Positions 981-51,043 of a stretch of DNA of 53,743 nt are shown one piece after another. The stretch covers positions 2,860,309-2,914,051 of the forward strand of contig CP070751.1 of NCBI GenBank assembly GCA_020348445.1, in the 5' to 3' direction. A model generated the notes under the pieces. It saw only the letters and a program-made list of their open reading frames with translations. It ran no database searches and was not told where the DNA came from. A program made the translations under genes and the position numbers. The DNA comes from Thermoplasmata archaeon (GTDB lineage Archaea > Thermoplasmatota > Thermoplasmata > GCA-020350865). Within the stretch, counting starts at the first letter, position 1, and each line of letters opens with the position of its first letter.

Positions 981-2789
981 TTATGCAATTTCTAGTTGTC
1001 TTATCCAATATTCAATCCTTTCAATAAAATTTTTATCATTTTCCTTATCTAATGATTCTACTTTTAATATTAATTTATTAATAAAGTCCCATTTTTCCTC
1101 ACTAATTTCTGAGAGGTTCATCTTTGAAAATAACAAATCAAAGAGCTTTTCATCCTTTTCATCCAATGCTTTTATAATTGCATCGGTTCTATTACTAAAA
1201 TATCCACATGCATCTAAAATATGCACAAGATCTTTATTACTTTCTCCTTTTTCGTAAATTTTTTTGAAATCATTTAAACATTTTTCTTTTAATAGTTGCA
1301 ATGTCTCAGGGGTCTTTGTTAAGAGACTCAATATGTCAAACATTTGTATAAGGGCTTCTCTATCTTTCTTTTTAATAATATCTTTTGCAAATAAAATCAA
1401 TTTTTTTATCGTGGGTAGATCTTTCTTTTTTATCTTATTACTTCTATAAACCTTGAGAACTTCGTACCTAATTGATTGAAATCGACGATTTGCATTTTCT
1501 GGTGAAAGAGACTTTGTTTTTAATATTTTGATGTAATTATCAATCAATTCTGAATTAAACGGTTCTTCGGATTCTATTTTTATAATAGGTTTTTCTTCTG
1601 GGAGTGAGCAATTTCTTTTAATCCACCCACGAAGAAAATTATCAACAAATTTATATTTTCCCCGTTCGGCTCTTTCAATGATTCCGTGTCTATTCTCAAT
1701 TTTATTTAAAAATGCTCCGATAGATCGGGTATTTATATTTAATTCCTGTGCAATGTCTCGGGGTCTATCTAGTTCTTTGGTTGCCATTATAACTACTATT
1801 TCTCTCATTTTTCCTGTTAGTTTTTCATATTCAGATATTAAATGGTGAGGTAGAAGATCAAAAATATTTTCATATGCTTCCAATACATCATTTTTATTGA
1901 TAATATCAATTTCCTTAAATTTTGCGATTTCAAAGCATTTTAATCCAAGTAATTGAACATAGTAAGGATGGCAATCTGATCTATCTATAATAAGATCCAA
2001 AGCATCCTTCTCTAATTTTATTTGAAATGAATTAAACCTATGTATCACAAAACTCCTCACTTCATCTTCAGGCAGCTCCTTTATTTTTTTAGGGAAGAAA
2101 AAATTGAAGAATGGTTGTTTCTTGTTTCTGATAATTTCATCTTCGAAAGATGTCATACTTGACGAAACAACAAAAGAAGTGGATTTTAAATCCTGGATAA
2201 ATCCTCTCAATGTCCATAGAAAATCCGGGCCGAACTCAAAAACTTTCTGGAATTCATCTAACATTATTACGATCTTTCCGCATTGTTGCCCTACTTTATC
2301 AATAGTTACAAAAGTCTTATCAATCAATTCATGCAAGTCTTTCTCTTTATCCTGAGAATCAAATTCTGCCCATAGGGTTACTATTTGGGATATATCAACA
2401 CCTATCTTTTTGGGTTTAACACTTTTCATAAATGATTTTCCTGTGTCTTTCATACGCTCTTTGTAACTTTTTTGATACGTTTTCTCAATTTCTCTCAATA
2501 AATATGAAAATAAATTACTTAGGGTGAAAGGATATGTTTTTTCAACCCTGATATACACAGAAGCGATTCCGATTTTTTCTAATTCCATTTTACATCTTAA
2601 CATTAAACTGCTTTTTCCAATTCTCCGTTTTCCGATAATTGCTATATGGTGTTTCGTCTTTGAACTTAAATAGTGAACCATTTCTTTGGTTTCTTGTTCT
2701 CTATCGCAGAAATAATCAGAAATTTCTCCCTCTTTTATATCTTCTCCAGCATAAAATGGGAATTTATATAATCTTACCATGATTACCAA
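981..2789 (-). CDS. Archaeal AAA+ ATPase (ATPase_2-like) with wHTH and unknown C-terminal helical domain
   Basis: F-DRE-E start, Walker A GKRRIGKSSL, Walker B VIMLDEFQ, HPYYVQLL, then YKFVDNFLRGWI. Confidence 0.85.
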   Translation of the reverse strand: MVIMVRLYKFPFYAGEDIKEGEISDYFCDREQETKEMVHYLSSKTKHHIAIIGKRRIGKSSLMLRCKMELEKIGIASVYIRVEKTYPFTLSNLFSYLLREIEKTYQKSYKERMKDTGKSFMKSVKPKKIGVDISQIVTLWAEFDSQDKEKDLHELIDKTFVTIDKVGQQCGKIVIMLDEFQKVFEFGPDFLWTLRGFIQDLKSTSFVVSSSMTSFEDEIIRNKKQPFFNFFFPKKIKELPEDEVRSFVIHRFNSFQIKLEKDALDLIIDRSDCHPYYVQLLGLKCFEIAKFKEIDIINKNDVLEAYENIFDLLPHHLISEYEKLTGKMREIVVIMATKELDRPRDIAQELNINTRSIGAFLNKIENRHGIIERAERGKYKFVDNFLRGWIKRNCSLPEEKPIIKIESEEPFNSELIDNYIKILKTKSLSPENANRRFQSIRYEVLKVYRSNKIKKKDLPTIKKLILFAKDIIKKKDREALIQMFDILSLLTKTPETLQLLKEKCLNDFKKIYEKGESNKDLVHILDACGYFSNRTDAIIKALDEKDEKLFDLLFSKMNLSEISEEKWDFINKLILKVESLDKENDKNFIERIEYWIRQLEIA

Positions 2790-2880
2790 ATGGTAATAAT
2801 GCTATTTAAGTATTTCTGACCAAACGGTAATGACGGTTATAAGTGACGGCTCTCCGTCCTGGATGGACGGGGGCCTCTTA

Positions 2881-3504
2881 CTAATCCTGATTAAGTTCAA
2901 TTAGTTTTTTAAGATTAATTTGTAATTTATTGAAAACTTCTTCTTCTTTGATGCCAGGATTAATCTCTAATAATTCATTTACAAACAAGTTGGTTGATCG
3001 TATAACTTCATTTATAAAAATGTTATGTGATATAGGTTCATCTTTTATATCATGTATAATATATGGTGAAATCCAATGAAGGGATTTTCCGTTCCTGAAT
3101 TTATCAAATGATAGATACAAGTATTTTTCATCTTTATTTATTGTAATATCAATTGAGTGCTCAATAATTTCAATAGCCACTTCTTTTTTTCCACGGATTA
3201 ATTCAATGGTTAACTTCACTAAATTAGAATACCAATCTAATAAACACACCCCATTTAATCCCAATCGGTTATATGGATCAGATATTGAATTTATAATAAG
3301 GTTGTCCTTTTCAAGTTCTTCTAAAGCATTTTTCGGAATTTCAAAAATATATTTATCATTTAATTCAATAACTAAATCACCTTGAATTGCTTCTACACCA
3401 ATCCAGAGATGTAAATCCTTGCTCCGAAAATTGTCTATAGTATAAGATTTTAATTTGGTTACAGTATTTTTTTCTATTCCATAATTAATTTTTATAGAGT
3501 TCAT
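2881..3504 (-). CDS. Putative immunity protein of the upstream toxin
   Basis: 207 aa, AT-rich, starts 27 bp after the toxin stop on the same strand; no recognisable enzyme motif. Confidence 0.55.
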   Translation of the reverse strand: MNSIKINYGIEKNTVTKLKSYTIDNFRSKDLHLWIGVEAIQGDLVIELNDKYIFEIPKNALEELEKDNLIINSISDPYNRLGLNGVCLLDWYSNLVKLTIELIRGKKEVAIEIIEHSIDITINKDEKYLYLSFDKFRNGKSLHWISPYIIHDIKDEPISHNIFINEVIRSTNLFVNELLEINPGIKEEEVFNKLQINLKKLIELNQD

Positions 3505-3531
3505 TTATATCACCCAATGCATTTTACCGTT

Positions 3532-4527
3532 TTAATATTTAACTTTTTTTACCCCAATAATACCAATGTCACCTTTTGCTACCGTGATTTCAACACCATC
3601 AATCGTCTTCCTATATAATTTTGAACCTTTTGTTCCGGATCCAACATATTTTCCGGTATCTGCAACATCTTCAACCGAATCAAGTATTTTTGGGTCTGAC
3701 CAACCTTTAGGAAATGTACTACCTTTTTTACCTGGGACATTTAGACTATGTCTATCTAAAACATGCTTTTGCCTACTTGGATGGAATGCATCTAATCCAG
3801 CTTCAATTCTTTTAGCTGCTCGCTCAGCAATGTTTTCAATAATTTCTTTACCGTATTTAGCAATATCATCTACAATCCTGCCCCCACCACCTACTACCAG
3901 GACAGCAAACGATCCAGGGGCACTTTTACTTAATTTCATACCTAAGTCATCAATGTATTTACAGACTTTATCTGCAACTTTGTTTAAAAAGCCCTTCGCC
4001 ACCAATTTAGCTTTACTGGCTCCTCTCTTAATCATTTTCCCAACAGCAGATATTCCATCCTTCAACTTACTCGTAATACTACCCAGCTTCCCAGCAATCC
4101 CCGCCGCATCCGCCGCAGCACCCAGCAAAAGGAACCCGCCCACCATCATCTGCTGAATAATATACCCCACAAGATGCGCCGCCGTGAAAGCCAGATTGAA
4201 CTTGTTCTCGTCCGTACTTATGAAATCGATATTCGATTGGTCATTCAATGCCCAGTTGTCAAAGAAATCCTCCATCAGATCCGTTATATTATCGAACCAT
4301 TGTTGAACTGTATGATCCCCGCCATCATTGAACGGATTGAAGTTGAAGGCTTTGTTGATTATACCGTAAAGGGAATTCTTAAACATCTCGAAAAATAATC
4401 CTGTATCGAAAAGGAGCGTCGGGATCAATTTTCCTATCTCCTTTAAACCATTAAAAATCTCCCCAATTTGGAAGAAGATACTTAGATCATCAAATATACC
4501 TGTTGCAAATCCCGTAAAGAAGCCCAT
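3532..4527 (-). CDS. Orphan polymorphic-toxin C-terminal cassette with EndoU-like nuclease tip
   Basis: Ala/Gly/Lys-rich pre-toxin helices then KHVLDRH...GKKGSTFPKGWSDPKILDSVEDVA...IDGVEITV; in-frame TAA at 4567-4569 excludes a longer N-terminus. Confidence 0.7.
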   Translation of the reverse strand: MGFFTGFATGIFDDLSIFFQIGEIFNGLKEIGKLIPTLLFDTGLFFEMFKNSLYGIINKAFNFNPFNDGGDHTVQQWFDNITDLMEDFFDNWALNDQSNIDFISTDENKFNLAFTAAHLVGYIIQQMMVGGFLLLGAAADAAGIAGKLGSITSKLKDGISAVGKMIKRGASKAKLVAKGFLNKVADKVCKYIDDLGMKLSKSAPGSFAVLVVGGGGRIVDDIAKYGKEIIENIAERAAKRIEAGLDAFHPSRQKHVLDRHSLNVPGKKGSTFPKGWSDPKILDSVEDVADTGKYVGSGTKGSKLYRKTIDGVEITVAKGDIGIIGVKKVKY

Positions 4528-4652
4528 TACAGTTCCTGAAATCCACGGACCTGTGAAATAATCCTTTTATGTAAATCAGCTATGATTGCAAAAGCCAGGA
4601 GACGATGATTTACATGTATATTCGCGCAACTAGCTTATAGACCAAATCAGCT

Positions 4653-7600
4653 TTATATCCCAATATAACTATAGAATGTTGGATAGGTTGTGGATATCTG
4701 ATAGCCTTCTGCCATGACCACATCAACATCATAAGCCCCTTTGGGCATGATGGTTTTATGCCACATCCATCGTTGCTCAGGGACATTATAGTAGTTCATT
4801 CCCCATACATTGGGAATGGCATCACAAAACCAATCTGTAGAATGGGTAGAATTTAGTTTTAATGGTAATCCCAATGTATCATAATCCATACTGTACTTTC
4901 CTGTCCATACACCTATACTGTAACTGCTTGCACCTCTTTCTCCTGTCCCGTTTACAGGGATAATGATATAGTAGAAATGTGGTCCTGCTGTGGCATTGCC
5001 GTAATCTGTATATGAGAGTGTATCATAAGCCAAGCTCGCGAGCAGATCGTAATTCCCTTTCCAGAAGCCATCTCTTGAAATGGAGCGGAGGACATGATAT
5101 CGATGGTCCATATCCAAGCTAGAAGGCCGTGCCCAGCTCAATGTAACATCGCCTGAAGTTCCGTCCACAGAGGCTGTCAGGCTATCCGCATCTCCGGTTC
5201 TGGGTGTGGCATTAAAACCAAATGACACGTTGTCATAAATTATCATGGCACCAGGCATGCCGCAAAAGGTATATTTAGCAGGGCCATCGAATTCAACCTC
5301 AAAGCCTTTACCCACCTCCATGAGAATGTTATTTTTATGCCTGTCTCCAATATTGTGCTGCACCCAAGTATGTGAGATAGGGTCAATGAATTTGATGTAG
5401 TTCGCATTCATGTCCACGGTGTACCGACATGTATCCATTATTCTCAAAGGCTCTAAAGGTATGGAAAATGTGTTCACCCCTTCATAAAATTGTTTAGTCC
5501 ATTTCCCAACTGTTCTACTTGTGTAACTGACCATACTCATATTATCCACGGCCCGTATTGTGTAATACAGCTCTTGGTGATAGTTCTTCTCGCCAGGCTC
5601 GGCAGAATCTGTATCGTTCCATGTTGTACGCGTCGGTATATAACCATTATCATAATCCAGGTCAGTGCGCTTCCAAGGAGTCGAGAAATCAAAGTCAGTT
5701 TGATTTTCAGAGCGGTAAATAAGATAATATTTTACTCGAGGGGATCGCGGTATCCAAAAGAGGAGAGTGTTGTGACCTTTGCCATCTGGATTGCCGTAAT
5801 CATCCACAACTTCTATGAAAAGCTCTGGGGGAAGGAGGTCACCGATCACAACATTTATCATGGTCTTTGGAAAGAGCAGCTCAACAGATGAATTGGCTAT
5901 GTCGGTGTAGTTGATCCTAGATTGCGTGAAGTTGTTCGCCTCCAGATAACCGCACATTTTCGAAGTTATATTAAAAGTAACAGTCCAAGTTTCGTAAACA
6001 AAGATACTACTGACATTCCATTCGAGAAAGGTATACCCTGATTCATTTTCAGATATATGATCTGGTTCAATTAAGAAGCTTCCTGGGACGTAATCAATCC
6101 AAGGTGGAAGCACATCTGTGATCATTGGGTTTGCATCTGTTGTATCCAAATCGACACCCGCAATATAGTCATAGGTCTCAATTTCACCTGCGACCTCCTC
6201 GTATATTGCGTATAAACATGTAGCATTGGATGCTGGGTAATATTTTCCATCAGTGATTTGTGCAATGTCCTGTAAAAGCTCTTCATTGTGATCGTCCCCC
6301 AATCCGATGGTGTATATCCTTATTCCGTTATTTTTTGCCCTATGTGCCTCACTGTATGCAAGCTCATCATCATTACCTTGACCATCTGTGAGAAGGATGA
6401 TGACCCAGATATGGGTTGGATCACCGCATTCGATAAGCTCGTTATTTGAGCACTGCAACGCGGCTCCGATGGCGGTGCTACCACTTGAATCAACGGTATC
6501 TATATCGTCCTTGATCTGATCGTAATTTGTGCTGAGATGATGGTCATTTACCAAAATCGCATCATTATCAAAATCAACTACGCAAGCCCTGTCATCTGGT
6601 TCCAATTTGTCCACATAATTCTTTGCAGCTTCTATTCTAAGATCATCTGGGTCGTTTACAAGCATGCTCCCAGAGCTATCTATGGCCAAAACCGTATCTT
6701 GATATTCATAAAATAGTTTCAACGTGGGAAAACCTGCACCTGTTACATTTAGGGTTATTGTTGCCTGCTCGTCATACCCTGAACCGAGAACGTTGATTTG
6801 AGTGGGCGAAATAAACTTATCTGGTATCAGATATGGATAAACCCTCGTTTGAACCACAACTGAATATGTAATAGCAGAATTGCAGTTTGCTCTGACGGTT
6901 ATAGTGGAATTGACATGATCGGCCACTATCCAGATTGATGGAATTGTAACCTTTATCGAGATATTTACATGTGAATCAAAATCAATGTATATATCAGGCA
7001 CACCATCTGCGTCAGAATCTGTTATCTTTGTTGTCCTGTCACCAGTATATATTTCCACGAACCAATCTTCGGGCAGGGATTGATTGAATATATCAAAGAG
7101 CTCTCCTGTGTTCATCTTGTTTGTGATGGTGAGGTTGTACCAGATCTCATCACCCTGCTTGCCGTATTCAAATTGACCTTTTGGGCCAATGTGAATAAGG
7201 GGTATTGTTGGTGTTTGATCAAACATCCATCCTGCAGCCTCTGATGTGACATCATCGTAACCCTGGTAGGTGCCGTTTCCTTCAGGAATCCTCTTTACTG
7301 TCTTATTTTCCTGATGCTCTGTATTCCAACCAACCATATCCAACAAAGTACCTTCATCATCATAAAGATAGACATTATCTGCAGTATTTGAGAGGTTGTT
7401 ATTAGCAAAAAGCCATGGAGCATCTTCGTATAATATCACAAAATAGGAATCATTGAAATCCAGAATATGATTACCTTGTATATACATGATGTCATCTGTG
7501 ACTACCGAAAAATTGTACAGGTTTATCGATGATTCTCCAATGTACATCAGTTCGATAAAACCGTATTGGGGCGCAGTGGGATTGAACATTACCTCGTTTA

Positions 7601-37465: not shown

Positions 37466-37612
37466 TGTCTTCGAAAATCCCTTTTGATATGATATTGAAG
37501 AGGAGTGCATTTAAGAATATCGAAACCAAGATGAGGTAAATAAATCTCCTACTTATTTTCAATACCCAATCAAAAAGTCAATTATAACCCCGTTTCTACC
37601 ATTTAAATACAT

Positions 37613-37666
37613 GGTTCTGTTCCAGACTCGGTTGGTGAGGGGGGCTGTTCCATAGCGGTTGGTGAA
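37613..37666 (+). repeat. Left end: TIR plus second CTGTTCCA-N4/5-GGTTG copy
   Basis: CTGTTCCA-GACTC-GGTTGGTGA (37617-37638) and CTGTTCCA-TAGC-GGTTGGTGA (37646-37666). Confidence 0.85.
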
Positions 37667-37683
37667 AGGGCTTTTAAGGATTT

Positions 37684-38502
37684 TTATAATTTTGTAAATT
37701 GAGAAGAGTAATATTGAATTGTTGAAAAAGATAAAAATAGTATGTACCCTGCATCCTCTCTTGTAATATCATATCCTTCATGTGCCCCAGTATGTAGTAA
37801 ATTATAGATTTTATGTTGCAATTCATCAATTCTTTCACTCTTTTTTGGTTTTTCTTTTTGACCAGGAGAATTGTAATCTATTTTTTCTATTATTTCAGGT
37901 TTCAATGCAATAGCTTCACGTAAACTTTCAAAAGCCTCTCTACATTTTACTACGGTAGGTTTATTATTACCTTCATTAAATAGTTGTTGAGCCTCCCTTA
38001 ATCTTGATATTGCTGATGAAAGAGATGGTATTTCATGGACTTTAGGTCTTAATATCTCAAATATAGCATAATCGAAATAACCCAATTCGGATGCTATATT
38101 CAACCATTCTCTTTCTGATAATTTAAAAGCTTGGTGAACATAGGCGGTACTATTGCTAATATTCCCTATATTAAACTCATTTGTATGAACAAAATGTAAT
38201 GTTTGAATCTCTACATTGACAGGGACATCTCCCCCCATTCTCACCTTCTCAATTTCTCTAAATAAATATGGATTTATAAAAAACTCTTCATGATATTCAA
38301 TTGATGCTCCCTGTTCTAATTCACGTGTATCCAATCGAATTCTGTCACCTATCATAATATTACATAGTCTGACTTTTGTTGTATAACCCATCATTTTTAG
38401 GTTATTTCTTTTATCTTGTGTAATTTGTAAATGTACTCCAATAACAGGACCAGGGGATGGGCTTCTTTTTTCTACTAAAACATTTTTAATTAAACCTTGC
38501 AT
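37684..38502 (-). CDS. Transposon cargo: hypothetical protein with possible HEPN/Abi-like C-terminal helical domain
   Basis: C-terminal AISRLREAQQLF...KCREAFE...LLHTGAHEGYDITREDA resembles HEPN-like bundles; no clean Rx4-6H. Confidence 0.5.
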   Translation of the reverse strand: MQGLIKNVLVEKRSPSPGPVIGVHLQITQDKRNNLKMMGYTTKVRLCNIMIGDRIRLDTRELEQGASIEYHEEFFINPYLFREIEKVRMGGDVPVNVEIQTLHFVHTNEFNIGNISNSTAYVHQAFKLSEREWLNIASELGYFDYAIFEILRPKVHEIPSLSSAISRLREAQQLFNEGNNKPTVVKCREAFESLREAIALKPEIIEKIDYNSPGQKEKPKKSERIDELQHKIYNLLHTGAHEGYDITREDAGYILFLSFSTIQYYSSQFTKL

Positions 38503-38595
38503 CTAAATTCCTCCATATAGTAAACCTCTAAAGAATATTTAATCCTTTTCTTCTTGAACTTAAAACAGTAAAAGAGATTATTGATGAGATATGAA

Positions 38596-39522
38596 TTATT
38601 TTTTCTTCTTTCTCTTTTTCCTAATCTTATCACATTTGGTGCAAAAATGTCTCTCTATTTGAGGAACCCATATTAAAATATTTTTGCATTGAGGGCATTT
38701 ACTTATATGTTCCCCCAATGGTGTTATTTCTATATCTTGAAGTTTCAATCCGAAATATCCTGGAATAATACCATATCCTTGTATCATTTCTCCTTTTCCT
38801 TCTTCTAGCATGTTTATATCAAAAAAACTAAGAATGGTTTCAGACCTATGTTCTAACGATACTAAATTTTTATGAGCTAAGTAAGCACCATTGATTATAT
38901 CCCCAACGATAATGCTATTTAAGAATGATGAAAAAATGAGTGATCTAACGGCCTCCATGTCCTCCTCTTTAATACCTCTTTTCCTTTCTAAAAATGAATC
39001 GACAACAGAAATATTTCCAAATAATACCCAACGGAGAGTGCTAGGAAACCCATTAAAAATTAATGGTAATCCATTTTTTTCAGTTTCGGATAACTTAATT
39101 TTAATATGATTTTTAATAATCCAGTCTATGATTTTCTCATAATTTAACATTCTGAAGGTAAAACCAGACTTTATAAATTTCAATCTGATTTTTTTGTCAT
39201 CATTGTTTAAATGCGGTCTTGCAATTTCAATAAACCATTCTGGTTTCATATCATAATTCAAGGTATAACAATCACGTGGTTTAGAACCGCCTTTTTCTCT
39301 TTTTTTTATTAATTCTGCGGGGCAATCATGTCTAATTAAAATCTTTTTATTTTCTAATTCGTCTACATATTTTTGAATCCCACTAATATCTTTACCTATT
39401 TTTCCATTCTTTCGTCTAATATTCTTACTAATGTTTGAAATCCAATCCATTTTATTATTATTTTCTATAAAATAATCTATTATATCCCTTTCTCCACTTC
39501 CTATTTTAAACTCTGTAGACAT
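38596..39522 (-). CDS. Transposon cargo: putative wHTH regulator with C-terminal Zn ribbon
   Basis: N-terminal helix-turn-helix-wing pattern (SGIQKYVDELENKKILIR); C-terminal CPQC..LIWVPQIERHFCTKC and basic tail. Confidence 0.55.
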   Translation of the reverse strand: MSTEFKIGSGERDIIDYFIENNNKMDWISNISKNIRRKNGKIGKDISGIQKYVDELENKKILIRHDCPAELIKKREKGGSKPRDCYTLNYDMKPEWFIEIARPHLNNDDKKIRLKFIKSGFTFRMLNYEKIIDWIIKNHIKIKLSETEKNGLPLIFNGFPSTLRWVLFGNISVVDSFLERKRGIKEEDMEAVRSLIFSSFLNSIIVGDIINGAYLAHKNLVSLEHRSETILSFFDINMLEEGKGEMIQGYGIIPGYFGLKLQDIEITPLGEHISKCPQCKNILIWVPQIERHFCTKCDKIRKKRKKKK

Positions 39523-39561
39523 TATTTGCTGTATAAAACAGCTTATTTAAAACTGTATCGG

Positions 39562-39666
39562 TTACTTGAATTTTGCATACTTGAAATTCAATTAATTGAA
39601 AATCCATTAACTGAAATTCCACTAATAGAATATCAACTTATTGAAACTCAGATATTTGAATGTCCA
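39562..39666 (+). repeat. Seven-copy 15-bp tandem array with invariant GAA
   Basis: (T/C)(T/A)GAA cores start at 39566, 39581, 39596, 39611, 39626, 39641 and 39656. Confidence 0.8.
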
Positions 39667-39718
39667 GCATGTCATTTTTATTGATGATATAAACGCAATC
39701 ACAACCATATACCTTAGT

Positions 39719-39804
39719 GAGGTCGTAACAAAGCGGTCAACCGTGGTGGATTGAAAATCCATTTCCGCAGGGATTCATGGGTTCGAATCCCGTCGACCTC
39801 ACCA
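39719..39804 (+). tRNA. Atypical class II (long variable arm) tRNA, anticodon GAA, CCA encoded
   Basis: Acceptor GAGGTCG/CGACCTC-A-CCA, anticodon arm GTGGA-TTGAAAA-TCCAT, 14-nt variable region with TCC-GCAG-GGA stem, T arm ATGGG-TTCGAAT-CCCGT; D stem weak. Confidence 0.8.
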
Positions 39805-39959
39805 AGGGTCGATTTAATGTCTACAGATAATACTAGATATGTTCAAACAACTATTTTACGTTTATCCCATATCCAATTTAAAAATACACCCATTATAAAT
39901 AAATTTGATAGATTGAAAGCTGATTATTATGATCGCCATATTGAACAATTAACCCTCGA

Positions 39960-40145
39960 TTATTTCTTAGCTTTAGAAGGCTCTACAACCAGCTTTAAAG
40001 ACCCCCCAACAGCCTCCAATTTCCAATATAAAGAATCTCCCGCTTTTAGTCCAAATTGCTCTACAATCCATCGTGGAATGGTGCTACGCAATGATGGGCT
40101 TTTGGATGAAGCTAAAGCCAATACAGTTTTCGTTCCTTCAGGCAT
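39960..40145 (-). CDS. AbrB/MazE/SpoVT-like DNA-binding protein
   Basis: SLRSTIPRWIVEQFGLKAGDSLYW swapped-hairpin signature; divergent from the transposase. Confidence 0.8.
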   Translation of the reverse strand: MPEGTKTVLALASSKSPSLRSTIPRWIVEQFGLKAGDSLYWKLEAVGGSLKLVVEPSKAKK

Positions 40146-40269
40146 TAAATCACCGAATAGAGATATAGATAGAGGGGTATATAAATCTACCTATCCATAT
40201 ACCATAAAGTATATATACCCATATGCCTATATAGGTATTAGAAGTGGTGTATATATAGGTAGAAAGGTG

Positions 40270-41439
40270 ATGAATGTGACAATACAAAATCCAAGACAAT
40301 TACGGGGGTTGGCCATCCTTTCCAGTGGATTGGAGGCTATAAAGCGTGTCTCAGATTATGAATATCAGGTAAAATCACAGCATGGTGACCATTATTATAC
40401 TGTGAAAAATACTAAATTTGGTATAACATGCACATGTCCAAATTGGCAAGAATACCAAACAGATTGTAAACATATTTTTGCAGTTACTTTCTCAATGCAA
40501 CTTCGATTAGAAGTTGAGAAAGAAATAGATACAAATAATATTTTAAAAGCCTCAGAAATAGTTGTATGCCCAGAATGTGAATCTGATAAGGTCATTAAAT
40601 TTGGCAGAAGGAAATGTAAGAAGGGCTACAATCAAAGATATGAATGTAAATCTTGTAACCATACTTTTGTAGTGAATAGAGAACTATCAAGACTCAAAGC
40701 CACCCCTGAAGTTATCTGTGTCTCTATGGATTTGTATTTCAAAGGAGTCTCATTAGCCAAAATAAAACATCACCTAAAATTGTTCTATAACCTAAATGTG
40801 GGGAGAAATACCATCATGCGTTGGATACATAAATTCTCTAAGATTCTAAGTGATTATTCTGAGAAGTATCAGCCCGAAGTAGGTGACCTTTGGCATTCTG
40901 ACGAAATGACAGCAAAGAATAGAGCCAATGGAAAGGGAGTAAGAAACCATGATTGGATTTGGAATTTGATGGATAGTGACACCCGATATCTTTTAGCTTC
41001 TAAAATCACCAAAACCAGAACTCCAGCCAACGCCAGAAAGCCATTAAGAGAGGGTAAGAAAAGGGCAGGAAAAACACCCAAGGCTCTTATTACTGACGGA
41101 CAACAATCTTATAATGAAGCTGTGAAAAAGGAATTTAGGGGTAAAGACTCAACAATCCACTTTCGCACAAGATCAAATAGAAAGCAATTCCTGAATCAGA
41201 ATCTTGAAAGGATGAACGGAACAGTAAGAGAGAGACTTAAGGTTATGAGAGGCTATGACCATAGGGAAACAGGACAGATAATCTTGGATGGTGAAAGATT
41301 CTACTACAACAACATAAGACCACATGAGAGCCTTAAGGGAATGACACCAGGACAGGTTGCAGGACTTCCTCATGTATCTGATGATGATAACCCTTGGCTT
41401 ACTTATATCAAGAAAGCTTTGGAAGAAAAAAATCATTAA
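40270..41439 (+). CDS. IS6-family DDE transposase with N-terminal SWIM finger and Zn ribbon
   Basis: SWIM CTCPNW..DCKHI, CPEC..CKSC, HTH, WHSDE, LITDG..SY, NQNLERMNGTVRER, YYNNIRPH; ATG 40270 follows AGGTG (frame open from 39751). Confidence 0.88.
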   Translation: MNVTIQNPRQLRGLAILSSGLEAIKRVSDYEYQVKSQHGDHYYTVKNTKFGITCTCPNWQEYQTDCKHIFAVTFSMQLRLEVEKEIDTNNILKASEIVVCPECESDKVIKFGRRKCKKGYNQRYECKSCNHTFVVNRELSRLKATPEVICVSMDLYFKGVSLAKIKHHLKLFYNLNVGRNTIMRWIHKFSKILSDYSEKYQPEVGDLWHSDEMTAKNRANGKGVRNHDWIWNLMDSDTRYLLASKITKTRTPANARKPLREGKKRAGKTPKALITDGQQSYNEAVKKEFRGKDSTIHFRTRSNRKQFLNQNLERMNGTVRERLKVMRGYDHRETGQIILDGERFYYNNIRPHESLKGMTPGQVAGLPHVSDDDNPWLTYIKKALEEKNH

Positions 41440-41544
41440 TCATCTTTTTTGTTATTTAGAAGGAATTTCTCTATTCCATTGAGAAACAAAACCATGTAGG
41501 AAATAATTAATATTAATCTAACAATAACCTTAAAGGAGATTAAT

Positions 41545-41742
41545 ATGGTTGAAATTCACTATCCATTAAAAGATTCTCCCTTACCTTTTCTCTTTCTTAT
41601 TTGTGGTGCAATTTTTGTATTTATTTCACTTTTTAGTGTAAATTATATTGATTTTTTAGGGTCTTTGGGACTATGTTTTTTATCATTAATGTTATTATTA
41701 ATAGGTGTAATTTTATCACTTAAAAAAGAAGGAAGGATTTAA
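41545..41742 (+). CDS. Transposon cargo: small two-TM membrane protein
   Basis: GGAG SD, two hydrophobic helices, basic tail. Confidence 0.6.
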   Translation: MVEIHYPLKDSPLPFLFLICGAIFVFISLFSVNYIDFLGSLGLCFLSLMLLLIGVILSLKKEGRI

Positions 41743-41760
41743 TTTATTTTGATTTTGTTT

Positions 41761-41822
41761 ACCAACCGAAATGGAACAGAAACAGCAAAATAAGGCAAAA
41801 CAACCTAACCTGGAACAGAACC
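41761..41822 (-). repeat. Right end: TIR plus second motif copy
   Basis: Minus strand reads CTGTTCCA-GGTTA-GGTTG (outer) and CTGTTCCA-TTTC-GGTTGGT (41761-41779). Confidence 0.85.
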
Positions 41823-42016
41823 AAATACATAAAATTATATATATAATGAAACCGATACCCTATAAAAGATTTACGGGATGCAAAATCAGTGGGATGCACA
41901 GATTCCGATACATGTTGACGATACAGGAGCGGATATACTGGATTTGTATAATTCCGCTTTTCGGAATGTGCCGTCCTTTCATGATTTCCCTTTGATAAAA
42001 ATAGGAGGTCACGAAT

Positions 42017-43138
42017 ATGAAATCGATAGTCCAGCAGGCTTTGTCGAGAAATGTGAATATTGAAAGTATGCAGGATGTGAAACAAGGATATCCAAACCGC
42101 AACCTTGAGGTGGATGCTGAGCTTGAGCAAATGCTCAAAAAACTGAAGACCAACATAAGGATCGTTGGTTGCGGTGGTGGTGGCTCAAACACCATCGCAA
42201 GAATAGCAGAAGAGGGTATTGTAGGAGCAGAACTCATCGCAGCCAACACCGACGCACAACATCTTCTGTCCATTCAGGCCCCGCGAAAGATTCTTTTGGG
42301 TAGAAGGGCCACAAGAGGATTGGGTGCAGGAGCACTGCCACAGGTGGGTGAGGAGGCTGCAAGGGAGGCCGAAGAGGAAATCAGAACCGCAATCACAGGC
42401 TCCCACATCGTGTTTTTGGCATGCGGACTTGGAGGCGGCACTGGAACAGGGAGTGCTGCTGTTGTGGCGGGAATAGCCAAGGACGTCGGTGCATTGACCA
42501 TAGCATTTACGACTTTCCCATTCAAGGGAGAGGGGAAACTCAGGGCAGAGAATGCCCAGTACGGTCTGGATAAGTTAAGGGATGTGGTGGACACAGTGGT
42601 TGTGATCCCCAACGACAAGCTCCTGGAACTGGTACCCAGACTTTCGCTTAATGCAGCATTTAAGGTTGCGGACGAGATTCTCATGCGCTCCATAAAGGGC
42701 TTAACTGAGATCATAACAAAGCCAGGACTTGTAAATCTGGACTTCAACGATTTAAAGACCATCATGAAGAGCGCGGGTGTGGCCATGATAGGCCTTGGGG
42801 AATCAAGCAGTGAAGGCGAGGACAGGGCAATGGAGGCCGTAAACGAGGCTTTGAATTCACCCCTTTTGGAGCTCGACATAAGCAATGCAAACGGAGTTCT
42901 GGTCAATGTCACAGGCGGAAGGGATATGACCGTTTCCGAGGCTGAGAGGGTTGCCGAGGAGATCCATGCAAGGGTCAATCCAAATGCGAGAATCATCTGG
43001 GGAGCTGCAATCGATCCAACCCTTGAGAACACAGTAAGAGTCATGCTCGTTGTGACTGGAGTCAAATCAAAGCAGGTCATGGGCAAGAAACAGTTCTATG
43101 AAGGAATCGAAAACGTAGGAATCGATTTTGTAAGGTAA
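42017..43138 (+). CDS. ftsZ: Cell division protein FtsZ (copy 1)
   Basis: [34 protein letters not shown]; SD GGAGGT. Confidence 0.97.
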
Positions 43139-43328: not shown

Positions 43329-44438
43329 ATGAAATCTATTGTCCAGGAAGTGTTGTCACGTTCAAGTGCAGAGACTATGACACCAGAGGTACCCACAATG
43401 CAAAGACGCATCACAGCAGATGATGAGGAACTGGAGCGGGTACTTGCTGGTCTTAAGACAAATATCAAAATCGTGGGATGCGGAGGTGGAGGATGCAACA
43501 CCATAAACAGGCTCGTGGAAACCGGTGTTATGGGTGCAGAGCTTTATGCCCTGAACACCGATGCCCAGCACCTTCTTACCATTGCTTCTCCAAACAAGAT
43601 CCTTTTGGGAAGAAGAACCACCCGGGGTCTCGGGGCTGGAGCCCTGCCGCAGGTTGGAGAGGAGGCCACAAGGGAGGCAGATGAGGAAATCAGATCCGCC
43701 CTCGTGGGAGGCGATATCGTATTCGTCACATGCGGGCTCGGCGGAGGAACAGGCACGGGATCCGCGTCGGTCGTGGCTGGCATCGCCAAGGAAAGTGGTG
43801 CTCTCACCATCGCAATCTGCACAACTCCCTTCAGAGCAGAGGGAATGGTGCGGATGGAGAACGCTGAATATGGTATGGAACGCCTTCGAGAGATAGCCGA
43901 TACTGTAATTGTCATACCCAACGATAAACTGCTTGAACTTGTGCCGAGATTATCCCTAAATGCTGCATTTAAGGTTGCTGACGAGATACTCATGCGCTCT
44001 ATAAAGGGTATCACAGAGATCATCACGAAGCCTGGACTTGTGAACCTCGATTTCAATGATCTCAAAACCATTATGAAGGGCGGCGGCGTGGCCATGATTG
44101 GCCTGGGTGAAGCAGAATCTGACAACAGAGCAATAGAGGCAGTTAATGAGGCCTTAAGCTCCCCGCTATTGGAGGTGGACATAAGTGAGGCCACAGGTGC
44201 CCTGGTGAATGTTACAGGAGGAAATGACATGACCGTTTCCGAGGCAGAAGCTGTGGCAGAAGAGGTTCACAGCCGAATCAGTGCAAATGCCAGGATTATC
44301 TGGGGGGCCACAATTGATCCCACAATAGAGAACAGAATAAGGGTCATGATCGTCGTAACGGGAGTGAAATCCAAGCAGATTTTAGGACCAGGTGGAATAG
44401 CAAGGGAGAGCGAAATCGGAATTGAATTTGTCAAGTGA
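43329..44438 (+). CDS. ftsZ: Cell division protein FtsZ (copy 2)
   Basis: [27 protein letters not shown]; own TTTATA and GGAGGT. Confidence 0.97.
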
Positions 44439-48998: not shown

Positions 48999-49586
48999 TT
49001 AGTTTGTGATATATTTCTGTTGAATATATCTCATACATCCCTCATAAATTGGAACACAGACTATATCGATTGGAATAGGAAACTTATTTGGAATTCTTAC
49101 TTGGATCTTAAAATGGGATATCAGTTCATTCACCAATTTTTTATGATCAGGTTTTTTCGAATTGAACCTTCCTGATGTATGAGCAAAAATATTTCTTAAT
49201 CTGCGAAGCAAATCTAATTCCTTCCAACCATTAATTGAATGATCTATTGAAATTTTATCAGAAATAATATTATAAGAATTCAGTAAAGCATACAGACGGA
49301 TAAGAAAGTTTTGATTTATCCAACCAGAAATTTCATTATTATTTTTGATATGTTTTTTTGTTATAGGTTGATTCAAGATAAATTTGATATTAAGCCCCTC
49401 ATTGATATAGTATGGTGCAGTAGTAATATTATGTTTACCTAACATATTCTCTTCCATATAAGGAAAATATGCTTTAGTGTTAATGAAGTTATTTTTAAGA
49501 ATTTCCATATCGCGTAAAAGAGTTTTAATTGACCTTTGCTTCATATTACCATCCTCCATCCTCATAATTAGTTGAAACTGCATCAA
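48999..49586 (-). CDS. HEPN-domain protein (putative RNase)
   Basis: Helical protein with LRRLRNIFAH (Rx4H). Confidence 0.6.
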   Translation of the reverse strand: MMQFQLIMRMEDGNMKQRSIKTLLRDMEILKNNFINTKAYFPYMEENMLGKHNITTAPYYINEGLNIKFILNQPITKKHIKNNNEISGWINQNFLIRLYALLNSYNIISDKISIDHSINGWKELDLLRRLRNIFAHTSGRFNSKKPDHKKLVNELISHFKIQVRIPNKFPIPIDIVCVPIYEGCMRYIQQKYITN

Positions 49587-49792
49587 TGTATTATCTTTTA
49601 TTCATTTCTATCCGAGTACTCAGAAAAGCCATAAAAATCGGTTTCGGAAAACCAACCCCAACCTCATTTTAAGACTTTTGGGCATCCCCCAACCTCGTAA
49701 TCTCAGTTTCTATCAGCTCCGCTATTTCTTTCTCCTTCAACTTTTTGTCCTTTTTTTATTGATGACAAAAAGTCATCAGGAGGTGATAGAAG

Positions 49793-50188
49793 TTGAGAAG
49801 AAAGATAATTGATTATAACCTACTGAGTACCAAGGGTGTTACATTCAATCGTTTGGATATAAACAAGTTGGTCAAGTATCCAAAAGAAAGCTGGGAACAT
49901 TTTGCAGTGAAGTCACAAATATTCTATATACTTCGTACAATGGACCATGATGTTCTAACAGAATTCGAGATTACTGGTTTTGGTATCGGAGATGTAATTG
50001 ACATATCCACTAGAATCACATGCCAGTATGAAATCGAAACTGCAATAAAATCAGCTAAACATCATAAGACAATTCAGAAGTATGCGAGACGGGGTTTGGA
50101 TATCATTATTGTATATATACCAAAGTTACCCAATGATGAATATGACCGCTATAAATATCTTAAAGATGTGATCATCGTACCAGATTGA
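49793..50188 (+). CDS. Small PD-(D/E)XK-like nuclease-fold protein
   Basis: SD AGGAGGTGA, HFAVK..., GDVID..YEIET motif. Confidence 0.5.
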   Translation: MRRKIIDYNLLSTKGVTFNRLDINKLVKYPKESWEHFAVKSQIFYILRTMDHDVLTEFEITGFGIGDVIDISTRITCQYEIETAIKSAKHHKTIQKYARRGLDIIIVYIPKLPNDEYDRYKYLKDVIIVPD

Positions 50189-50263
50189 CCATTATAATCT
50201 CTTTTTTTGTGATTCTTAAAGCTAAATTTATTATTAACTAAGTTGAAGCCTTGAAAAATATAT

Positions 50264-51043
50264 CTAAAATTTATAAGGTGGTCGCAATATCACTTGTGAG
50301 TTATCACCAAAATTAAAAAAATATTCGATTGGCACTATTGAATAATCAACTTTTGGTACTCGGGATATTTTTTTAAATTCTATTGGTAGGTCATATAGAC
50401 CATCTTTATTTTCAACTATAAAATAGGATAAAATTGGGGAAAAAGGAGGACATCTTAATCCAGCTAGGATAGCAACTAGGTTCTGATAATCCGTTCCAAA
50501 TTCTCTTAGAATGGATAGAATTACCACAAATAACTCATGTGGATTAAATGGTTCATTTATAAAATTTAAATTAATAATTCTTTTATTATATTCATAACAT
50601 TGTCCATATTTCCTTCCTATTGTTTCTTTTATCTTCTCTCTGTGGCTTCGCTCATCATATTTATTTCGAATAATAACCGTATTTTCTTGAGCTTTTCTTG
50701 TAAATAGAATCTTGGGTTCAATTTTATTATCAATATTCCTTGATATAGTGTAAAATTCGGTTCCAAGTTCATTTAACCATTTTTGAGTTTTTCCTATCAA
50801 TGAATCAGGAAAATAGCCATGGTGATTCGTACATTCTACCACATATCCATTTCCAATATCAAAATCAGGTGTTTGATTTTTATTTCTTGTAATCTTTTTA
50901 GGTTTGAAACCTAAACGGATCAACTCAATTTCGAGAGATTTCTCAGAAAATGGATCAAACAAATTAATGGGAATCCGTGTGTTTTTCCAAGTATTCCCGA
51001 CTTTAATTTGTCCAAATATAGATTGGTTTCTTATTTTCATCAT
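50264..51043 (-). CDS. Hypothetical restriction-endonuclease-fold protein
   Basis: TPDFDIGNGYVVECT resembles PD-(D/E)XK with K->T. Confidence 0.45.
   Translation of the reverse strand: MMKIRNQSIFGQIKVGNTWKNTRIPINLFDPFSEKSLEIELIRLGFKPKKITRNKNQTPDFDIGNGYVVECTNHHGYFPDSLIGKTQKWLNELGTEFYTISRNIDNKIEPKILFTRKAQENTVIIRNKYDERSHREKIKETIGRKYGQCYEYNKRIINLNFINEPFNPHELFVVILSILREFGTDYQNLVAILAGLRCPPFSPILSYFIVENKDGLYDLPIEFKKISRVPKVDYSIVPIEYFFNFGDNSQVILRPPYKF

Follow-up and report, generated by a model that had tools for sequence, protein, structure and literature searches.

The window considered here is a stretch of 53,743 nucleotides from a Thermoplasmata archaeon (assembly GCA_020348445.1, contig CP070751.1, forward-strand positions 2,860,309 to 2,914,051), and positions given without further qualification are those of the window. 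Between 37613 and 41822 it holds a segment of 4210 bp, bounded by matching ends, in which lie a transposase gene, a small divergent gene for a predicted AbrB-fold protein, two further protein-coding genes, a tRNA gene and a doubtful short open reading frame (ORF). This segment is most likely, with a probability of about 0.82, an intact, single-copy unit transposon, that is, a passenger-carrying insertion sequence (IS; the passenger-carrying form is termed tIS), and it belongs to an archaeal family related to IS6.

The left boundary reads AAATACAT followed by GGTTCTGTTCCAG (37605–37625), and the right one reads CTGGAACAGAACC followed by AAATACAT (41810–41830). The terminal inverted repeat (TIR) GGTTCTGTTCCAG is a perfect 13 bp that starts with GG, and the 8-bp direct repeat AAATACAT, the target-site duplication (TSD), is exact and abuts both ends. 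Both features had been pointed out in an initial annotation made from the letters of this DNA, and they are borne out by a scan of the window for 8/8 direct repeats directly flanking TIRs of at least 12/13 matches at a spacing of 0.5–10 kb, which returned the pair of the element as its sole match and nothing in 100 block shuffles. The exact 13-mer occurs in two places only, in the window and likewise in the whole 5.16-Mb single-contig genome, in which the element is present as a single copy. At the left end, two bipartite motifs of the form CTGTTCCA-N5/N4-GGTTGGTG occupy 37617–37637 and 37645–37664, while the right end carries a subterminal bipartite motif (41758–41779) and a terminal motif with the 13-bp inverted repeat (41810–41822). 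The G+C content of the element is 33%, 11 points lower than that of its flanks (44%), and no DNA-level similarity of the element to phages was found. The boundaries and core features are as follows.

37605–37612, no strand: left TSD copy AAATACAT (sequence and window scan)
37613–37668, plus strand: left (transposase-distal) end, with the 13-bp inverted repeat GGTTCTGTTCCAG at 37613–37625 (sequence and repeat analysis)
39960–40145, minus strand: small protein of predicted AbrB/MazE fold, 61 aa, divergent from the transposase (PF04014 and relatives)
40146–40269, no strand: control region of 124 bp from which the AbrB-like gene and the transposase gene diverge (repeats and conservation)
40270–41439, plus strand: transposase, 389 aa, with SWIM zinc finger, Zn ribbon, helix-turn-helix region and DDE domain of the IS6/IS240 type (profiles)
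41758–41822, minus strand: right (transposase-proximal) end (sequence and repeat analysis)
41823–41830, no strand: right TSD copy AAATACAT, 186 bp 5' of the ftsZ start (sequence and window scan)

The transposase, its AbrB-like partner and the family of relatives

The gene at 40270–41439 is the only transposase gene of the element, as the initial annotation had counted. Its product matches PF13610 (DDE_Tnp_IS240) with 36.9 bits against a cut-off of 27, together with rve_3 and SWIM (27 bits), and its best IS family among the NCBIfam models is transpos_IS6, at 95 bits with an equivalog cut-off of 125, IS1 and IS481 scoring far lower. At least 275 homologues were found at E ≤ 1e-3; D, D and E, along with an Arg at E+7, are invariant across 15 relatives, and the closest annotated ones are zinc-finger-bearing Clostridial IS6 members such as ISCpe7, with 28–30% identity over residues 98–377. 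The IS6 family is characterized by GG tips with a cTGTt motif, 8-bp duplications and cointegrate formation, its catalogued members measure 0.7–1.8 kb, and its clades h and i possess zinc fingers (ZF) and N-terminal extensions (PMC7986276). The present element has all three hallmarks, GG..cTGTt tips, 8-bp duplication and IS240-type DDE domain, whereas the compactness of IS6 is not kept, given a length of 4210 bp (3.4–8.3 kb in the family), an additional conserved gene and a pair of bipartite sites at each end.

The second conserved gene encodes the AbrB-like protein, which matches PF04014 with 23.5 bits (E 5.5e-5), just under the cut-off of 24.7, and the motif SLRtTvP.W...f.L..GD is kept across the AbrB-like proteins of 8 family members. 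Each of the eight close relatives (8/8) has a homologue of 56–71 aa next to the transposase gene and divergent from it, and divergent homologues with 30–44% identity stand beside 9/27 more distant transposases. The initial annotation had placed this gene among the passengers; judged by its conserved, divergent position in 8/8 close relatives, it is a core partner of the transposase and not a passenger. Gene callers annotate the close transposase relatives as proteins of 430–543 aa, and the equivalent in the window is a 562-aa frame open from 39751, inside the tRNA; this N-terminally extended transposase was rejected, as its additional part runs antisense to the conserved AbrB gene. The extension frame aligns among relatives, and the two frames have their third codon positions in common; the codon-position variability in the AbrB frame is 603/396/846, which favors it as the coding frame. 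The control region between the two genes is AT-rich, with TATA-like runs and nested palindromes (40156–40183/40212–40239 and 40186–40204/40245–40263), and its sequence is conserved among relatives, visible as the pseudo-translation VYKxTY..IYP..IG.

On contigs encoding transposase relatives, a search for inverted repeats that begin with GG and are flanked by duplications delimited six further elements of 3.4–8.3 kb with GGTTCTGTT-type ends, five of the six with a perfect 8-bp TSD.

L048, 5958–9364: 3407 bp, TSD GAATAAGA
L050, 3598–8454: 4857 bp, TSD TTATCTTG
L051, 4992–10955: 5964 bp, TSD CTAGACCT
L089, 1499–9831: 8333 bp, TSD GCTATTAA
L090, 7113–11682: 4570 bp, TSD CATACATA
L046, 5638–9098: 3461 bp, TSD matching at 6/8 positions

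All seven bounded elements start with GGT(T/A)CTG, except for GGTTTTG at one end of L046, and in 7/7 both ends carry a terminal and a subterminal bipartite motif, TGTTnCA-N4/5-CGGkTGat, the second half of which varies between lineages. The transposase and the AbrB-like protein are the only genes common to these elements, and the cargo differs in every member; L050, for example, carries a fusion of an N6/N4 DNA methyltransferase with an Mrr-type nuclease domain (3727–5130), and L089 carries a ParB_N-domain protein (3400–4386). They constitute a previously uncatalogued archaeal IS6-related family in which a two-gene core is combined with exchangeable cargo. The initial annotation had proposed a unit, non-composite, transposon built on one IS6-type enzyme, an idea that would have been refuted if other transposase copies lacked such ends and relatives showed no empty site at this position. 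The finding of six relatives bounded by like ends with TSDs supports it: related copies have GGTTCTGTT-type ends, 8-bp duplications and different cargo, the transposase of the bounded unit carries the PF13610 domain, and an empty site exists (see below). A composite transposon does not match what is seen here, namely one transposase gene, the TIR only at the two ends and one genomic copy, whereas a tIS does, as ORF1, ORF2 and the tRNA lie inside the inverted repeats and are missing from the other family members, which carry other genes.

A mechanism can be proposed from these parts. The core consists of the two divergent genes, for the 389-aa protein with SWIM, Zn-ribbon and DDE domains and for the 61-aa AbrB-like protein, and of ends of about 55–65 bp, each with a terminal and a subterminal bipartite motif (CTGTTCCA-N4/5-GGTTGG). 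The transposase would bind the paired sites at both ends and introduce 8-bp staggered cuts into the target, and transposition would probably be replicative, via a cointegrate resolved by host recombination, by analogy with IS6/IS26, with all DNA between the ends transferred together. The most likely role of the AbrB-like protein is to repress the palindrome-rich control region that the two genes share. The DNA on either side of the core is interchangeable cargo, comprising in this copy a putative Ig-like and HEPN-like protein, a winged helix-turn-helix (wHTH) and Zn-ribbon protein, a doubtful membrane ORF and a promoter-equipped tRNA(GAA).

To call this an undescribed system, as the initial annotation did, is an overstatement, since tIS are a known category, although the 2021 review of the IS6 family catalogues only one, ISDsp3 from Dehalococcoides, with a single passenger gene (PMC7986276). 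Like ISDsp3, the present element is a single IS6-type element with passenger DNA inside its own inverted repeats; unlike ISDsp3, with its one hypothetical gene, it carries three to four passengers, including a tRNA, and is part of a whole family in which the cargo is different in each copy. Its resemblance to IS6/IS26, especially to clades h and i and ISCpe7, covers the IS240-type DDE domain after a Zn ribbon, the GG and cTGTt tips and the 8-bp TSD, and the best profile and BLAST matches of the transposase are to IS6, including ISCpe7. The family differs from IS6 and ISCpe7 in its extra N-terminal SWIM domain and its conserved divergent AbrB-like gene, and from IS6 in its ends, with two bipartite sites each in place of one 14–20-bp inverted repeat, its size of 3.4–8.3 kb with passengers inside the ends, its archaeal hosts (Thermoplasmata and others) and its score under the equivalog cut-off. 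In IS26 pseudo-compound transposons and translocatable units, the same type of enzyme moves passengers, but these units depend on a pair of IS copies in direct repeat, or on an IS together with neighboring DNA, whereas the present element has one transposase gene, exists once in the genome and is flanked as a whole by the TSD. A small gene for a putative AbrB/MazE-fold protein adjoining a replicative DDE transposition module also recalls Tn3-family members with integral toxin–antitoxin or regulator genes (PMC7157771), from which the element differs in showing no toxin partner, no resolvase and a different transposase family.

Passengers, repeats and the tRNA

The remaining features of the element are the following.

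37684–38502, minus strand: ORF1, 272 aa, N-terminal Ig-like beta-sandwich and C-terminal HEPN/DUF4145-like helical domain (profile and model)
38556–38595, no strand: 40-nt motif between the ORF2 stop and the ORF1 start (comparison with genome G002)
38596–39522, minus strand: ORF2, 308 aa, N-terminal wHTH and C-terminal CxxC..CxxC zinc ribbon (weak matches)
39512–39827, no strand: perfect 13-bp inverted repeat, TCTGTAGACATTA at 39512–39524 and TAATGTCTACAGA at 39815–39827 (sequence)
39526–39684, no strand: array of a 15-bp repeat with a TTGAA core, in the interval that separates the ORF2 start from the tRNA promoter region (TRF and inspection by eye)
39719–39804, plus strand: tRNA, class II leucine-type body, A73, encoded CCA, anticodon GAA (Phe) (ARAGORN and Rfam/Infernal)
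41545–41742, plus strand: 65-aa two-helix membrane-like ORF, passenger candidate (open frame only)

The initial annotation had listed five passengers; all the listed genes are present, but the AbrB-like gene is core, and the 65-aa ORF is an open frame for which neither a family match nor a homologue, at related loci or elsewhere in the genome, was found. ORF1 belongs to an uncharacterized family with at least 651 relatives at E ≤ 1e-3. It matches DUF4145 weakly (E 0.0027), and in its structure model (pLDDT 72.5) the N-terminal domain resembles 3but/AF_0446 (E 4e-5), while the top three structural matches of the C-terminal domain in a Foldseek-independent search are all HEPN proteins (2hsb, Z 13.0; 1wol, 11.3; 3o10, 10.7), Z scores that helical bundles easily reach. 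Weak DUF4145 and HEPN Pfam matches appear in 4/34 and 3/34 members of the ORF1 family, respectively. The residues R88, W133, R188 and H241 are invariant in this family, and no Rx4-6H motif was found in ORF1, there being no Arg 4–6 residues before H241 and R188 lying on another helix. ORF2, for which two relatives were found, has a low-confidence model (pLDDT 60), weak matches to wHTH domains of the PadR/MarR type and to zinc-ribbon Pfam families, and leads to TFE-like proteins and transcription regulators that score below 0.9; as modeled, it is a probable DNA-binding regulator. Searches of PADLOC, PHROGs and NCBIfam with ORF1, ORF2 and the 65-aa ORF yielded no usable match, and no conserved gene linkage was seen around the relatives of ORF1 (L053 and L054) or of ORF2, on contigs that are short.

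Several repeats surround these genes. The 15-bp array, detected by TRF at 39581–39650 (period 15, 4.7 copies, score 63) and comprising about seven units by eye, is a probable operator of ORF2, and one of its units shares 14 nt (ATTGAAAATCCATT) with the anticodon arm of the tRNA. Array and tRNA are enclosed by the perfect 13-bp inverted repeat, the left arm of which contains the ORF2 start codon, and the right arm of which recreates the ATG-TCT-ACA opening on the opposite strand. The 40-nt motif is 100% and 97.5% identical to two unrelated loci in G002 (L035 3362–3401 and L036 3100–3139), a genome whose genes are otherwise about 75% identical; three copies exist in the nine genomes searched, and no upstream ORF is common to its loci. 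A CRISPR spacer was considered for this motif and rejected, as the G002 copy is not in a repeat array.

The tRNA is recognized by both ARAGORN and Infernal, which agree on a molecule of 83–86 nt with the anticodon GAA. It scores 48.9 bits against Rfam (cut-off 29), compared with 45–58 bits for the tRNA-Leu genes of the host. Its 14-nt variable arm and anticodon stem are essentially identical to those of a tRNA-Leu from another Thermoplasmata genome (G028). The acceptor, anticodon and T stems are perfect, the D stem has one A–C mismatch, the conserved core positions are kept among those checked by eye, and the fold has a z-score of −3.17. About 26–32 nt 5' of the gene stands a TATA-like ATATAAA, and CCA is encoded, which is missing from the host tRNAs aligned. 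The tRNA looks structurally competent and, with this promoter-like sequence, could be expressed and charged. Neither the tRNA-Leu set of the host nor its tRNA-Phe is close to it; the host's own tRNA-Phe(GAA), at genome position 3438892, is a class I molecule whose gene contains an intron.

Which amino acid the tRNA would carry is a matter of two conflicting sets of identity elements. Leucine identity resides in A73 together with the long variable arm in the archaeon Haloferax volcanii, phenylalanine identity resides in G34, A35, A36 and A73, and a yeast tRNA-Tyr with a GAA anticodon is mischarged by PheRS (PMC9976931). The element tRNA has the long variable arm and A73 of a leucine body, but its anticodon is GAA in place of a leucine anticodon (NAG, YAA); conversely, it has G34, A35, A36 and A73, but not the class I body of tRNA-Phe, with a variable region of 4–5 nt. 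As it holds both sets, its charging is ambiguous in silico. A comparable mismatch between tRNA body and anticodon is known from nematode nev-tRNAs (PMC3333845, PMC4300185) and bacterial allo-tRNAs (PMC5389517). The nev-tRNAs are class II molecules that bear Gly or Ile anticodons and accept leucine in vitro (PMC3333845), whereas the Phe anticodon of the element tRNA is a strong PheRS determinant, which adds to the ambiguity. Moreover, nev- and allo-tRNAs are chromosomal families conserved across a clade, unlike this single gene on an archaeal transposon. Among leucine codons, TTA accounts for 46/100 in the genes of the element and 16/141 in the flanking host genes, which makes a Leu(UAA) helper tRNA with a later change of anticodon a plausible origin.

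The initial annotation regarded the element as spreading a translation-related RNA together with regulators, a view that these data do not support: the element is single-copy, the six other bounded elements are all without a tRNA (0/6), and there is no shared cargo. When metagenome contigs were scanned for the combined pattern of anticodon arm and variable arm, two matches came up, both by chance and neither in a tRNA, and the viral contigs had none. tRNA-like genes do occur near three other family transposases. The one at L052 3460–3530 (44.7 bits) has the anticodon UUA with C33 and the same position 5' of AbrB, that at L081 955–1040 (the same as L086 1704–1793) has a class II body, UCC and C33 and is below threshold, and that at L025 2608–2680 (the same as L087 8528–8601) has an 8-nt anticodon loop and scores 47.7 bits. 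A search at these loci found no left end or TSD, so these genes are not assignable as cargo, and the number of tRNAs near family transposases is about that expected from tRNA density alone.

Elsewhere in the same genome (G000), about 20 tRNA genes, some with atypical sequences, lie within 3 kb outside the window (G000:C1:4640570–4643566), an arrangement uncommon in archaeal chromosomes that may point to a virus or a different mobile element. Two tRNA-Leu(UAA) genes were also noted, one at G000:C1:1864505–1864591, outside the window, the 5' half of which is presumably of bacterial type, and an intron-containing one of archaeal type at genome position 2560668. Within the window, two further islands of low G+C content (1001–4000 and 49001–51000; 28–32% versus about 42%) may be other foreign DNA.

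The insertion site upstream of ftsZ

Two tandem ftsZ paralogues (42017–43138 and 43329–44438) lie directly 3' of the element. The right duplication ends 186 bp before the ATG of the first (42017), close to the 190 bp estimated by the initial annotation, and the element sits just 5' of the TATA-rich leader of this gene, probably leaving the ftsZ promoter intact. In G003, a genome of the same genus, the site is empty: both flanks are contiguous and a single AAATATAT stands between them, the kind of allele that the initial annotation had suggested looking for. In a closed genome of the same genus (G001), the allele is unreadable because the site is N-masked (L039, about 3490–3590).

In the sister species G002 and G004, different family ends abut exactly the same flank nucleotide (41823). 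The ends at this junction are of the GGTTGG type in G000, and of the CGGGTGAT and CGAATGG types in G004 and G002, corresponding to different family lineages. The insert in G002 (L031 2430–4915, reverse strand) is 2.5 kb long and contains an inverted AbrB homologue and three other ORFs without a transposase, and the one in G004 (L038 1700–2210) is about 440 bp long, with just one full two-site end and again without a transposase; a candidate left end there, GGTTCTATTTT, was rejected as a TIR because it is homologous flank. The occupation of one junction nucleotide by other family ends makes the site either a hotspot or an old landing pad. Both TSD copies in G000 share a C that G003 and G004 do not have, which fits an insertion after that substitution. 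The description of the element as recently inserted stands as far as the empty site in G003, the perfect TIRs and the intact genes are concerned, while the occupation of the same nucleotide in G002 and G004 makes it an incomplete account. On the sequence features, a recent and separate insertion in G000 appears favored by the perfect TIRs, the intact genes, the shared C and the differing end lineages.

Competing explanations and meaning of the element

Several observations weigh against an intact unit transposon of an IS6-related family. As this is the sole copy in the genome, its own mobility is unproven; the IS6 score of the transposase is under the equivalog cut-off (95 versus 125), and size, second core gene and two-site ends depart from classic IS6; ORF2 and the 65-aa ORF are almost without comparative support; selection on the tRNA cannot be shown, because it is unique to this copy; and the other family ends at the same junction in G002 and G004 render a simple account of recent random insertion incomplete. 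Some of these points would suit a separate IS family that has only common ancestry with IS6 and that moves, for example, by cut-and-paste with multi-site ends and an accessory protein. The profile score under the cut-off, the 28–30% identity to annotated IS6 confined to residues 98–377, the additional SWIM domain, the second conserved gene, the two binding-type sites per end and the size of 3.4–8.3 kb versus 0.7–1.8 kb for catalogued IS6 (PMC7986276) all lean that way, but this explanation is unlikely given that GG..cTGTt tips, 8-bp duplication and IS240-type DDE domain are all present and that ZF and N-terminal extensions already exist in IS6 clades h and i. Still less probable is an ancient insertion, in which one element landed before G000, G002 and G004 split, diverged in place and was lost from G003. 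An IS6-type end at the identical flank nucleotide in three genomes and the AbrB homologue retained at the site in G002 speak for such a history; it would, however, have to accommodate three ends with different bipartite motifs (GGTTGG, CGGGTGAT and CGAATGG) that match different family lineages, a G000 copy with perfect TIRs and all genes intact, the C shared by both G000 TSD copies and missing from G003 and G004, and a G+C content still 11 points under that of the flanks.

Within a unit transposon of this family, the role of the tRNA allows further explanations. The gene may be a functionless relic, a former helper of the Leu(UAA/CAA) type for TTA and TTG codons whose anticodon has mutated to GAA, a possibility to be taken seriously even though the odds are somewhat against it. 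The leucine-type body, the excess of TTA codons for which a Leu(UAA) helper would be expected, the single base that separates GAA from UAA, the D-stem mismatch and the lack of a second example in the other bounded elements or the metagenome scan would all agree with decay. Against decay stand the perfect acceptor, anticodon and T stems with the core positions kept, a score equal to that of functional host tRNA-Leu genes, the TATA-like box at the right distance and an anticodon loop that differs coordinately at four positions from the nearest tRNA-Leu arm, reading U32 U33 GAA A37 A38, which we take to be a typical Phe-type loop. Far less likely is that the passengers form one module of addiction, defence or translation reprogramming, with a HEPN-like RNase and a nuclease-resistant or recoding tRNA under wHTH control via the array. 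The HEPN-like fold adjoining the tRNA, the 14 nt that the array between ORF2 and the tRNA shares with the anticodon arm, the 13-bp inverted repeat enclosing both and the odd tRNA-like genes adjoining three other family transposases (L052, L081 and L025) invite this idea, but ORF1 is without Rx4-6H and has no PADLOC match, the relatives of ORF1 and ORF2 show no conserved linkage, the other tRNA-like genes are not placed inside element boundaries, and the number of tRNAs near the loci is about what their density predicts. Equally long odds apply to the proposition that the transposon mobilizes a mismatched tRNA under control of the wHTH protein and the array, which would recode UUY to Leu or replace a host tRNA-Phe attacked by an RNase, possibly the adjacent HEPN-like protein. 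If that were true, the element would represent the first module of translation reprogramming or tRNA-based addiction carried by a transposon in archaea, and the tRNA-like genes at the three other family transposases would be further instances.

The unit transposon remains the favored explanation, and its significance extends beyond this locus. Whatever its origin, this tRNA, class II in body and Phe in anticodon, provides a natural experiment on which identity set prevails in archaea, and, if expressed, it could be a source of regulated mistranslation. The presence of three different family members at one nucleotide just 5' of the ftsZ promoter hints at target selection. Passenger-carrying unit transposons are scarcely documented in archaea, and a 2019 survey of Thaumarchaeota named transposons with cargo as one of the element classes that had yet to be detected in archaea (PMC6563490). 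With its clean boundaries, two-gene core, lineage-specific two-site ends and exchangeable cargo, this family offers a tractable model for the shuffling of accessory genes in archaea.

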